The notes beneath the pieces are model-generated. The model searched no databases. It was not told the DNA's origin and saw nothing but the letters and a program-made list of their open reading frames with translations. This document shows, piece by piece, positions 17,476 to 22,084 of a DNA stretch of 41,786 nucleotides. How positions within the stretch are numbered: position 1 is the stretch's first letter; each line of letters starts with the position of its first letter. Position numbers and translations under genes: made by a program. This DNA comes from an uncultured Methanosarcinales archaeon (GTDB lineage: Archaea > Nanobdellota > Nanobdellia > Woesearchaeales > SKGA01): the NCBI GenBank assembly GCA_964534065.1, contig CAZHNR010000001.1, positions 1 through 41,786 of the forward strand. Reading direction: 5' to 3'.

Positions 17476-17799
17476 TTATAAATCTTCGTCTTCGTCTTCA
17501 TCGCCAAAGCTCTCAGAATCATTTTCAGTATGCAATAATTTCTCTATTTCAGGGTCCAAAGGCTCTTTTTTAGGCTTAAAGACTTCCTGAGGAGACTTGA
17601 GCTTCTCAATAAGTTCCCCAAAAGCAACTTTTGGCAATACTTTAGTGATACGAATTTTTACAAAATCGCCTTTTTCTACACGAGGAACAAATACTACGAA
17701 ACCTTTAATTCGTAAGATTCCATCGCCTTTTTCCCCTACATTGCCAACAATGGCAGAATGTTCTTCACCTTCTTTTACAGGTGGTTTTTTATCATTCAA
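17476..17799 (-). CDS. TRAM-domain RNA-binding protein with acidic tail
   Basis: GEKGDGILRIKGFVVFVPRVEKGDFVKIRITKVLPKVAFGE is a TRAM-like beta-barrel pattern. TTG start preceded by GAGGT. The C-terminus is Asp/Glu-rich. Confidence 0.65.
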   Translation of the reverse strand: MNDKKPPVKEGEEHSAIVGNVGEKGDGILRIKGFVVFVPRVEKGDFVKIRITKVLPKVAFGELIEKLKSPQEVFKPKKEPLDPEIEKLLHTENDSESFGDEDEDEDL

Positions 17800-17834: not shown

Positions 17835-18647
17835 TTACTTAGTCACCTTTGCTAATGATTCCCATGCTAAATCAAACAACTGATCTAATGCAGATGAAAA
17901 AAATGGAGTATTCACCCATATACCAATATCATAGGTTGGATGTACTTCATCATCATGCATAACCATAAAAATAACTTCAGAACCATCAACGACAACAAAA
18001 CGTGCATTGATATGATCAACATTTCTGATTTCTGCGATGCCGTCCAGATCTTTTACTGCAGCTTTTGCTTCATCCGTTGTGATAGGTGCAGCAATACGAA
18101 TCTTTACGCCTCGTTTTACTAACTCTTCCATAACAGGTTTCAGTCCTTCAACTTTTCGAACTAAACCTTGGGTTGTCGTCATAATAGTAACTGTTTCTTC
18201 TGCACCACGAATAGTGAATTCAATATGGTTGTATAAATTTAGTCGACCACGAAGTGAACCAGAAAGATCAGTAGGTTCAACAAGCTCAACACCTTGTGTG
18301 TGTAAGTTGTTTAACTCTTCAATCATATCAGTTTGCTTTAACTCGTCAAGTTTCTTGATATGATCTTCAGTAGATGTCATCAAGTTTTTCTTCACGCGTT
18401 CAAGTACTTCTTTTGGTGGAACTGCAATATATTTGATAGGTTTGCCAATTTTCATAACGACAAAACCTTTTTTTTCTAGAGATTCTAGGACATCATAGCT
18501 ACGGGAACGTGGAACATTCGCAATATCAGATAATTCACCAGCAGTACTTACTCCTCTTGACAGAAGAGCAGTCCAGACCTTTGCTTCATATAGATTTAAC
18601 GAAAAGTACCTTCGTAGCTTTCCTAAAAACTCGTCTTTCACAATCAT
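17835..18647 (-). CDS. TrmB-family transcriptional regulator
   Basis: N-terminal wHTH LYEAKVWTALLSRGVSTAGELSDIANVPRSRSYDVLESLEKKGFV plus a C-terminal effector-like domain. ATG 18647 chosen. Confidence 0.8.
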   Translation of the reverse strand: MIVKDEFLGKLRRYFSLNLYEAKVWTALLSRGVSTAGELSDIANVPRSRSYDVLESLEKKGFVVMKIGKPIKYIAVPPKEVLERVKKNLMTSTEDHIKKLDELKQTDMIEELNNLHTQGVELVEPTDLSGSLRGRLNLYNHIEFTIRGAEETVTIMTTTQGLVRKVEGLKPVMEELVKRGVKIRIAAPITTDEAKAAVKDLDGIAEIRNVDHINARFVVVDGSEVIFMVMHDDEVHPTYDIGIWVNTPFFSSALDQLFDLAWESLAKVTK

Positions 18648-18772
18648 TAATTTTCCCTCCAAAAAAGGACCTCTCACCTTTTTCCAATGTTGATATGCTC
18701 GTAACTACTATTTATATGTTACTGTTTTTAACCCACGAGTAATAGTTACAGAATAGTGCTCTACAAGCGTAG

Positions 18773-19609
18773 TTACTTTTGTATACAGTAAAATAACTCA
18801 TTAGGTAAAGAAAATGTAGTAAACTCCCAACCTTCCTTTTCACAGAAACGTTCTAACCATACTCTTTTGGAAGATTGAATAGATGATTTCCCTCCAATAG
18901 ATACTAAAGGAAAAGAAACAACAATAAACGGAGCTTGCACCACACTTAATAATTTTTTAGAGCTATGTCGTCGTACCGTCTCAAAAGAATCAAGTGCTTT
19001 CAAGAAAAAAACTACATCAAAACATTCTTTCTCAAGATACGATAAAAAAGCATCACTCAATACATCAGCTCCAAAAGCTTTTCCAGAAATATTCATGTTT
19101 GAAAAAAAATGTTGTATGCATGCTAATTCACGAGAAGATAAGTCAACAGCAACATATTCCGTTGGAGCTACAGGTAAGAACTGGTAAGCGAAAGGATTGT
19201 AGCCGCACGCAACATCCAGTAATCGAAAATCTTTAGAAAGACCCTTCTTGAATAATTCATCGAATAGACGCGCATATAGTGTTTTGTAATAAGGAATTCT
19301 TTCCTCTGTTGAACGATGTTGGTCAAGAAGAACAACAGCATCATCAAGAGTAGTGATTTGATTGACCTGTTGCATCGTTACAGGTTCTTTAAGAAATAAA
19401 CCATATACTTCACGAAGTTGTTTTCTTACTTCACGAAGATACGCCTTTATTTTTTTATTTCTTAGTGCTTGTTCAAAAGAATTGTATACAGCAAGATCAG
19501 GAAGAATATGGATATTTTTATGCAAGTAATGGAGAACGAAAGCATCATCAAGAAAAGCAAGTTCTTTTTTTTGTTTTACCCAAGAAACAAACTCATTTTC
19601 ATACCGCAT
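18773..19609 (-). CDS. SAM-dependent methyltransferase resembling the ArmA/RmtB (FmrO) 16S rRNA m7G1405 methyltransferase family
   Basis: Colinear motifs HRSTEER, LLDVACGYNPFA, YVAVDL, DVVFFLKALDSFE, IVVSFPLVSIGGK, NELFY, as recalled for ArmA/Rmt proteins. ATG 19609 overlaps the pelota stop by 11 nt. Confidence 0.55.
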   Translation of the reverse strand: MRYENEFVSWVKQKKELAFLDDAFVLHYLHKNIHILPDLAVYNSFEQALRNKKIKAYLREVRKQLREVYGLFLKEPVTMQQVNQITTLDDAVVLLDQHRSTEERIPYYKTLYARLFDELFKKGLSKDFRLLDVACGYNPFAYQFLPVAPTEYVAVDLSSRELACIQHFFSNMNISGKAFGADVLSDAFLSYLEKECFDVVFFLKALDSFETVRRHSSKKLLSVVQAPFIVVSFPLVSIGGKSSIQSSKRVWLERFCEKEGWEFTTFSLPNELFYCIQK

Positions 19610-20651
19610 TCTTCCACCTAAGTATAGCAACTACACCACCAAGACCATCGATAGTTTTCGCTGTTGCGTCATCATAAAGAATATGTATTTTCCCTCTTGT
19701 CGTATCAACCGTTTGTAACAATTGATCAACTACATCATACGTTGCTTGTTGCTTAGCGTTTTCAATGTACTCATTGGTCAGTATAAGTGACAACACCGCT
19801 CCATTCTGTGCAGCTACAGAAACATCTTCAAAGCCATAGGCAACTTTATCTTTAGCCAGTGATGTAAGAACTTCTTCAACAATTGCCTGCTCTTTTGTAA
19901 CTCGTTGGTTTGCAACAAGAGACTTGAGTTCAGGACGAGCAAGCAATTGACCTACCACACTTTTTTCTGCACCGTAAGCCGTAACCAAAACTACTTTTTT
20001 TTGCAAAGCATCAGGCAATAGTTTCTTGAAAGGAGCATGCCAAAATCCAGGAGAACCTACAATAATAGTTTCAAAAGATTTACGTTTTACTTGTTCTTGA
20101 AGCTCATGAATAATTTCACTAATAACTGAAGAAGAAGCATCTGTAGCGTACTGTTTATTTTGTACTTCCGATTTTAGTTCAGCCACATGTTTAATTCCTT
20201 GTTGTGTTATTTCAGAAAACAAAGCTTTCTCCCTATCAAAAACAACAACTAACAATTGCTGTGCAGTATTTGCGACCGCGTCTGCTAACTTATCTTTCAA
20301 GTATGCAGGCCAAGATTTTTTTTCTAAAGAAAACTCATCATTCAAACTCAAACCAAAAGAATGGTGAGCACCTAAAGGTACGTCATCAGTTCCTCTGGCT
20401 ACCGTACCCTTTACTCGCAAAATGCCTCCTTGTTCTAGCTCAGTTCCAATAACGGTGAGTTGCAAAGTGATAGTTTTACGAACAACAGAAGTTCTTCCTG
20501 CAGTTACATCACCAATTTTAATTTTACGCTCAGTTTTGGAAGTAATAAGATCACCTGGAAGAATGAGATGCGATAAATACCACAAATCATCTAGAAGAGA
20601 AATTTTTAGTTTGACATAACCTTGGTTAAAATTCTTCTTAATAACGAGCAT
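19599..20651 (-). CDS. Pelota (Dom34) mRNA-surveillance/ribosome-rescue factor
   Basis: 350 aa. N-terminus ..GYVKLKISLLDDLWYLSHLILPGDLI.. and eRF1-like central and C-terminal domains. Confidence 0.85.
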   Translation of the reverse strand: MLVIKKNFNQGYVKLKISLLDDLWYLSHLILPGDLITSKTERKIKIGDVTAGRTSVVRKTITLQLTVIGTELEQGGILRVKGTVARGTDDVPLGAHHSFGLSLNDEFSLEKKSWPAYLKDKLADAVANTAQQLLVVVFDREKALFSEITQQGIKHVAELKSEVQNKQYATDASSSVISEIIHELQEQVKRKSFETIIVGSPGFWHAPFKKLLPDALQKKVVLVTAYGAEKSVVGQLLARPELKSLVANQRVTKEQAIVEEVLTSLAKDKVAYGFEDVSVAAQNGAVLSLILTNEYIENAKQQATYDVVDQLLQTVDTTRGKIHILYDDATAKTIDGLGGVVAILRWKNAV

Positions 20652-20690
20652 AGAAAAGAAAAAAGAAAAAAAGTATAAAAACTCTTGGTT

Positions 20691-21633: not shown

Positions 21634-21912
21634 TTATATCTCCTCTATGCCGTCGCCTTCTTCTCGAATAGTAATATATTCGTAGGCCTTGTTGATTACT
21701 AATGCAGCTTTTGGTAAATCTTGTGTTCGTAGTGAAGTTGTTGATTTCCAAGCCCCATCTTTATCTTTATAGGTACGTTCTACAGAAACAGTTCGATAAA
21801 GGCGTGTTTCGCCTTCTTTAGTCTTTACTTCATTGGTCCAAATCGTTGCTGAAATTGGACTTGCTCTGAATTTCTTTTCAGGTGTGTTTTTATCTATATT
21901 TATTGATGTCAT
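21634..21912 (-). CDS. small hypothetical protein translationally coupled to radA (possible nucleic-acid-binding fold)
   Basis: ATG 21912 is preceded by a strong AAGGAGGT box. Its stop is 1 nt before the radA ATG. The motif SVERTYKDKDGAWKSTTSLRTQDLPKAALVINKAYEYI is only tentatively PC4-like. Confidence 0.5.
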   Translation of the reverse strand: MTSINIDKNTPEKKFRASPISATIWTNEVKTKEGETRLYRTVSVERTYKDKDGAWKSTTSLRTQDLPKAALVINKAYEYITIREEGDGIEEI

Positions 21913-22084
21913 GGTTATACCTCCTTGGTTGTCCCTTCTTATTTCACTCATTGACCGCGGTCATGAGGGGGTGGCCATCACAATACTGTTATTTTGAGAT
22001 GTTTAAATAGCTTATGAGCACATGTCCAGTGCCAATTTAGATGTACAGAAACAAGATTGTTTCTACCAATAAGAAATAAATCAC

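Follow-up and report, generated by a model that had tools for sequence, protein, structure and literature searches.

The window analysed here, positions 1 to 41,786 of contig CAZHNR010000001.1 (assembly GCA_964534065.1), which is titled as an uncultured Methanosarcinales archaeon and placed by GTDB in the Woesearchaeales, encodes on its reverse strand a protein of the FmrO/Arm family of S-adenosylmethionine (SAM)-dependent rRNA methyltransferases, which includes Sgm, ArmA and the Rmt enzymes. The gene begins within the end of the coding sequence of pelota (aPelota/Dom34), a ribosome-rescue factor, is followed by a TrmB-family regulator gene and is present as a single copy in the 1.12-Mb assembly (98% complete; DPANN, Woesearchaeota). 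A preliminary description of the locus had regarded the product as an ArmA/RmtB (FmrO)-type enzyme and as an archaeal housekeeping homologue of the aminoglycoside-resistance methyltransferases that confer N7-methylation of G1405 (m7G1405). We show that the assignment to the family holds at the level of sequence, fold and active-site residues and that the gene belongs to a distinct archaeal branch. We lean, if only slightly, towards a native methyltransferase of helix 44 (h44) of the small subunit (SSU), with G1405 as its most likely target in this genus.

Family membership, fold and conserved residues

The translated open reading frame (ORF) contains all five motif blocks listed in the preliminary description in the quoted form, namely HRSTEER, LLDVACGYNPFA, DVVFFLKALDSFE, VVSFPLVSIGGK and NELFY. 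Its best Pfam match was FmrO (PF07091) with 78.8 bits (E=5.6e-22; model positions 35-254 of 255, residues 61-274), so that the proposed hmmscan comparison gave a score well above the curated gathering threshold of 27 bits, and generic class I methyltransferase models remained below their cut-offs. Rmt families accounted for every NCBIfam match, and a sequence search of the PDB returned only Sgm (best match, E=8e-19), RmtF, ArmA, RmtB and RmtC. The specific NCBIfam models for Rmt A-H scored 28-56 bits, compared with cut-offs of at least 500. Close homologues carry the Joint Genome Institute (JGI) label 16S rRNA (guanine(1405)-N(7))-methyltransferase. The similarity to the family greatly exceeds what chance would give.

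The fold agrees with this assignment from end to end. An AlphaFold2 model built from 69 homologues reached a predicted local distance difference test score (pLDDT) of 95.5 and a predicted template modelling score (pTM) of 0.91. The top 16 Foldseek matches in the PDB, with template modelling (TM) scores of 0.6-0.8 overall, were all Arm/Rmt enzymes (Sgm, RmtB, RmtF and RmtC) aligned over their full length, including Sgm with TM scores of 0.76/0.81, RmtB with 0.71/0.81 and RmtF with 0.72/0.77, and the next fold was Dot1L with a TM score of about 0.42. The model has the two-domain Arm architecture, in which a helical N-terminal part (N1/N2, approximately residues 1-121) precedes a C-terminal class I Rossmann domain with alternating strands and helices after residue 121.

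The residues that bind the cofactor in Sgm have been named as T105, R108, A133, D156, D182, L198 and Q207 (Husain et al. 2010, PMC2896518). Six of them are identical in the window protein (T101, R104, A134, D156, the Asp of GADVL and L203), and the sole change is that of Q207 to V212. To assess further positions, we took the residue roles from the RmtC-30S cryo-electron microscopy (cryo-EM) paper and read their conservation from an alignment of 85 sequences, 44 archaeal and 41 bacterial. The equivalents of RmtC Lys204 (K204 in the window protein), which is described there as essential and universally conserved, Ser107 (S100) and Arg50 (R62) are present in all 44 archaeal sequences. The position of Tyr60 (F72) is aromatic and that of Asp160 is Asp or Glu in every one of them. 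The loop by which RmtC clamps h44 is retained like for like, with K241 in place of Arg241 and I244 in place of Met245.

Sgm of Micromonospora zionensis (PDB 3LCU/3LCV), an m7G1405 enzyme of the producer type, is the best match in both sequence and structure. It is approximately 24% identical to the window protein, differs from it at Q207 and lies beyond a long branch with full support. Its task is the protection of an antibiotic producer, a context that has no counterpart here. RmtC (PDB 6PQB; 30S complex 8GHU), RmtB, RmtF and ArmA share with the window protein the two domains, the equivalents of Lys204, aromatic residue 60, Arg50 and the SAM-contacting Ser107 and Asp160, and the clamping loop, but they are only 23-25% identical to it; RmtC R211 and K236 are replaced by Thr and Val, respectively, and the window protein fails the NCBIfam Rmt cut-offs. 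Furthermore, RmtB, RmtF and ArmA are borne on plasmids or transposons of Gram-negative bacteria, whereas the gene studied here is chromosomal and overlaps pelota. Environmental bacterial FmrO homologues (Chloroflexi/Anaerolineae, Planctomycetota) resemble it as chromosomal PF07091 members outside producers and pathogens. Unlike the window protein, they keep the K-Y and His54 signature and belong to the bacterial side of the tree.

The closest described archaeal relative is NEQ545 of Nanoarchaeum equitans, reported as the "first archaeal ortholog" of the Arm family with an unclear function (Husain et al. 2010, PMC2896518). It is likewise archaeal, from the same phylum (DPANN), and chromosomal; the catalytic motifs of its C-terminal part are conserved, and its helical N-terminal domain has diverged. 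N. equitans belongs to a different order, and NEQ545 is described as being without one N-terminal helix, whereas the window protein carries an insert of 15-25 amino acids. NEQ545, which we compared by its description, would be an ortholog of the Woesearchaeal branch.

Gene neighbourhood and the link to pelota

The features of the locus are listed in Table 1. Both neighbours of the methyltransferase gene were identified by Pfam, which bears out its earlier placement between TrmB and pelota, and the overlap with the pelota stop codon was read directly from the sequence at the length given before.

Table 1. Features at the methyltransferase locus (positions of the window)
Feature	Position	Strand	Remarks
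FmrO/Arm-family SAM-dependent rRNA methyltransferase, coding sequence	18773..19609	(-)	278 amino acids plus stop; Pfam PF07091, match to Sgm (3lcu), AlphaFold2 model
Pelota (aPelota/Dom34), ribosome-rescue factor, coding sequence	19599..20651	(-)	directly upstream; eRF1 domains 1, 2 and 3; eRF1_1 83.6 bits, eRF1_3 50.5 bits
11-nucleotide overlap ATGCGGTATGA, methyltransferase ATG to pelota TGA	19599..19609	(-)	aag aAT Gcg gta TGA, read from sequence
Shine-Dalgarno-like AGGTGG	19614..19619	(-)	4 nucleotides 5' of the methyltransferase ATG, within the pelota coding sequence; putative function
TATA-like TTTTTATA	20674..20681	(-)	39-nucleotide radA-pelota spacer, about 30 nucleotides 5' of the pelota ATG; found by eye; candidate promoter of the bicistron
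TrmB-family transcription regulator, coding sequence	17835..18677	(-)	downstream neighbour; Pfam TrmB 68.3 bits
TATA box ATATAAATA of the TrmB gene	18717-18709	(-)	in the 95-nucleotide FmrO-TrmB spacer
TRAM-domain protein	17476-17799	(-)	107 amino acids; 45 bits; between TrmB and ribosomal protein S2
ORF 5' of radA	21634-21951	(-)	105 amino acids

The overlap is a recurrent property of these loci. Of the 28 loci with pelota upstream, 26 show an overlap of 4-25 nucleotides between the start of FmrO and the stop of pelota, down to an FmrO identity of 31%, and the coupling suggested before thus extends well beyond the window; these loci were searched for with an archaeal-only alignment and one branch-specific peptide pattern, and the result is silent on other phyla. 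Across the genus and family the gene order orf105-RadA-pelota-FmrO-TrmB-TRAM-S2 is kept. In 11 further loci from other lineages, with FmrO identities of 31-39%, pelota lies directly upstream and TrmB downstream in about half. A bicistron of pelota and the methyltransferase is the likeliest unit as judged from the sequence, and TrmB probably forms a separate transcription unit because it has its own TATA box in the spacer. The overlap implies that translation of the methyltransferase may be coupled to that of pelota. The putative Shine-Dalgarno site is complementary to the 3'-terminal GATCACCTCC of congener 16S rRNAs. An alternative in-frame TTG start at position 19630, which would add seven residues, is disfavoured, because both the Shine-Dalgarno-like site and the alignment of homologous N-termini speak for the ATG at 19609. 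In the literature searched, we found no paper on the FmrO-pelota gene pair, and a scan of the window against Rfam gave no matches.

Several observations concern the neighbouring genes. The TrmB neighbour is unusually conserved, with 70-90% amino acid identity across loci versus 31-50% for the adjacent FmrO and pelota. The small TRAM-domain protein has an acidic tail rich in Asp and Glu and keeps its position across the family. The short ORF just 5' of radA is syntenic in all family loci (59-71% identity) and had no Pfam match at E<=0.01. In one relative, genome G391, FmrO follows pelota directly and is fused to a Methyltransf_11 domain (92.7 bits) in a single ORF of about 460 amino acids.

Distribution and phylogeny of the archaeal branch

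All 17 genomes of the window's family carry FmrO, as do 13 of the 43 other families that were sampled in the order. Among genomes of the phylum with a completeness of at least 90%, other orders included, 229 of 401 (57%) had the gene. A survey of 14 model genomes, including four from archaea, did not detect it. Named homologues come from metagenome-assembled genomes of Woesearchaeota, Nanoarchaeia or Nanobdellota, and the closest homologue of all is 74% identical to the window protein, a distance at which synonymous sites would be saturated.

In a maximum-likelihood tree, the 44 archaeal sequences were split from the bacterial enzymes (Sgm, ArmA, RmtB, RmtC, RmtF and 36 environmental members) by a branch with 100% support in the Shimodaira-Hasegawa-like approximate likelihood ratio test (SH-aLRT), and the family of the window formed its own fully supported clade. 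The phylogeny proposed as a check thus sets the archaeal sequences apart from ArmA, RmtB/C/F and Sgm. It shows a distinct and old archaeal FmrO branch that is specific to Nanoarchaeota/Woesearchaeota. As the tree has no root and the way in which sequences were retrieved partly shaped its groups, we do not infer the direction of an ancient transfer between the domains. The bacterial side is large, comprising more than 1,363 clusters with many from Chloroflexi/Anaerolineae, and environmental bacterial homologues are likewise mentioned in the RmtC literature.

The GC content near the gene (0.365) is the same as in the remainder of the window, and no mobile-element or integrase genes were found near FmrO in the window. 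We reject a resistance island or a recent gain of the gene by horizontal transfer in view of the absence of mobile genes and the uniform composition. The proposed status of the gene as an archaeal housekeeping homologue is supported with regard to its native origin, but it is not new, as NEQ545 had been reported in 2010 (PMC2896518).

Concerning the source of the sequences, eleven contigs among the related loci are titled "uncultured Methanosarcinales archaeon" and one is titled "Acidobacteriota bacterium". These titles look mis-assigned or the contigs mis-binned, and most of them carry a Woesearchaeal-type FmrO with the pelota/TrmB synteny.

Target nucleotide and alternative functions

In six complete 16S genes from the genus and family of the window, the sequence is CCCGUCAAA...AAGUCGUC, corresponding to G1405:C1496, A1408, A1492/A1493 and an unchanged GGAA loop of helix 45 (h45). 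The same genes read ...CACACCGCCCGUCAAA... and ...AAGUCGUCACAAGG...GGGGAACCUGCGG, which also gives U1406, C1407 and U1495. The canonical substrate context for m7G1405 is present in this lineage. With regard to the helix-44 context, which the preliminary description had singled out for examination, G1405:C1496 is found in the six congeners, and A1405:U1496 in four other FmrO-bearing genomes of the phylum, which are considered below. All of these 16S genes, those of the six congeners and of the four A1405 genomes, read GUCGUCACAAGG with a C at E. coli position 1499, which lies on the decoding-centre strand facing C1402-C1404. This position is an A in E. coli and most archaea.

We consider the gene to be a native FmrO/Arm-family (Sgm, Rmt, ArmA) gene that has been passed on vertically and is probably translated as the second cistron in an operon with pelota. 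If the enzyme works as RmtC does, its helical N-terminal part would bind the surface formed by h24, h27, h44 and h45 of the mature or nearly mature small subunit, and a guanine atop h44 would flip into the Rossmann active site to be methylated at N7, with Lys204 and the aromatic Phe72 positioning the target base. In this genus, the most likely target would be the equivalent of G1405, paired with C1496. The enzyme would thereby serve as a constitutive modifier of the decoding centre of the cell's own ribosomes rather than as an acquired drug resistance, and, should the site indeed be G1405, the cell would as a side effect be insensitive to 4,6-disubstituted deoxystreptamine aminoglycosides. The retained catalytic apparatus, an architecture specific to the 30S subunit, the wide vertical spread among genomes of about 1 Mb and the linkage to a ribosome factor favour such a modifier of the cell's own SSU rRNA over an acquired resistance gene; we infer the substrate RNA, its target base and the physiological role. 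The universal KsgA/Dim1 enzyme is also encoded in the genome. Taken together, a native h44 methyltransferase acting most likely on G1405 in this genus is the function that we favour with modest confidence.

A number of observations weigh against this interpretation. The Rmt equivalog model NF000466 matched with 119.5 bits (E=1.5e-34), which is below its equivalog cut-off of 250 bits. The 30S-docking residues K20 and Y21 of RmtC correspond to E16 and L17, with a Lys one position earlier; among the archaeal sequences, Glu occurs in 32 of 44 and Leu in 40 of 44, compared with K20 in 39, Y21 in 38 and H54 in all of the 41 bacterial sequences. His54, which is essential in RmtC according to the cryo-EM paper, is replaced by R66 (Arg in 32 of 44 archaeal sequences), and the N-terminal domain carries the above-mentioned insert. 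In the window's own assembly, neither a 1394-1407 motif nor an SSU match was found, i.e. the 3' end of its 16S gene is missing and G1405 is seen only in congeners. In addition, the compensatory double change to A1405:U1496 is present in G364, G103, G113 and G369, genomes of the phylum that represent four families, with three of the four 16S genes on large contigs, and in each of these genomes the FmrO ORF is intact and retains the catalytic Lys and the SAM motifs. Finally, the published RNase T1 data of N. equitans, the one cultured carrier with a mapped h44, include the fragment UC(Am)(Am)Gp, corresponding to nucleotides 1406-1410 and hence to a cut after G1405.

The four A1405 genes were obtained from a search for non-G1405 patterns with 12 matches, seven of which were chance matches in coding sequences, one was set aside and four were true 16S genes. 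The match that we set aside and did not count, on a 1.5-kb contig of genome G391, is a 16S-like 3' end with an A at 1405 and an extremely short h44; contamination or an unusual rRNA may lie behind it, and it is regarded as unreliable. One of the four FmrO copies from A1405 genomes reads HESTRGR where the HxSTxER motif stands. No paper on FmrO carriers with A1405 was found in the literature searched.

These observations raise the possibility that the enzyme belongs to the same family and performs the same chemistry on another nucleotide, with G1401 as the best candidate, or at another SSU site, and that m7G1405 is not made. We regard this as possible but doubtful. It would explain why intact FmrO is retained where position 1405 is an A, and it is consistent with the branch-wide replacement of the K20/Y21/H54 positions and with an Asp in all 44 archaeal sequences at RmtC position 207, a Pro in bacteria. 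G1405 of N. equitans is unlikely to be m7G because RNase T1 cuts after it, which m7G would prevent by blocking T1 cleavage. In the same data, fragments containing nucleotide 1402 are missing, and the authors took a sequence ambiguity at G1401 to suggest a modified guanine. The step from these data to NEQ545, and from there to the window protein, would hold if both enzymes act alike. On the other side, NEQ545 has diverged so far that it may be a poor guide to the Woesearchaeal enzymes, and the T1 fragment proves that some molecules are unmodified, not all of them. The h44-clamping residues near G1405 keep their equivalents in the window protein, and its genus has an intact G1405:C1496 pair. We know of no FmrO-family enzyme that uses a site other than G1405. 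From the sequence comparison, catalysis looks conserved in the archaeal branch, whereas docking to the 30S subunit looks remodelled.

A broader form of this idea is that the branch installs a housekeeping N7-methylguanine or another mark elsewhere, again with G1401 as the best candidate, and that the near-obligatory translational coupling to pelota reflects a tie to ribosome rescue or to a late quality control of the 30S subunit. This reading would be suggested because FmrO is kept together with A1405:U1496, by the T1 data of N. equitans and by the replaced docking residues; we put it forward tentatively and consider it rather improbable.

A true aminoglycoside-resistance determinant acting via m7G1405, either acquired from bacteria or kept against aminoglycoside producers by the archaeon or its host consortium, is unlikely in our view. 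According to the literature, every characterised member of the family gives high-level resistance by m7G1405, the 16S rRNA of the congeners has the bacterial-type drug-site nucleotides A1408 and G1405, and the distribution of the gene among the other sampled families of the order is patchy. However, the surroundings of the gene show neither mobile elements, integrases nor a shift in composition, and it lies in a conserved block of core genes with the pelota overlap maintained across the order. Moreover, the archaeal branch is monophyletic, deep and present in more than half of the sampled genomes of the phylum, and copies persist where 1405 is an A. It has been argued in a preprint, for bacteria of the candidate phyla radiation (CPR), that aminoglycoside uptake in bacteria needs respiration. 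A search of the genome revealed no cytochrome oxidase, which makes uptake of these drugs, and hence a selection for resistance, doubtful.

A substrate other than SSU rRNA (tRNA, 23S rRNA or protein) or a catalytically dead factor for ribosome binding or assembly, to which the diverged docking residues, the neighbouring TRAM-domain RNA-binding protein and the fusion of the G391 copy to a second class I methyltransferase might point, is very improbable in view of the cofactor and catalytic residues that are invariant over 44 divergent sequences and argue for retained catalysis, the complete two-domain Arm architecture specific to 30S recognition, and the linkage to a ribosome factor.

Archaeal members of the FmrO family have been known since 2010, and the gene in the window adds one more; for the window alone, this is an ordinary finding. 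The remaining interest lies in the target nucleotide and in the pelota linkage, which is conserved. As a sister to the m7G1405 resistance methyltransferases, which are of clinical importance, there is a large native archaeal branch that sits in a probable core translation operon. Its activity and target, if measured, would tell whether the resistance enzymes derive from housekeeping modifiers of the ribosome, whether insensitivity to aminoglycosides is intrinsic to many DPANN archaea, and whether a site besides G1405 can be recognised by the FmrO family.

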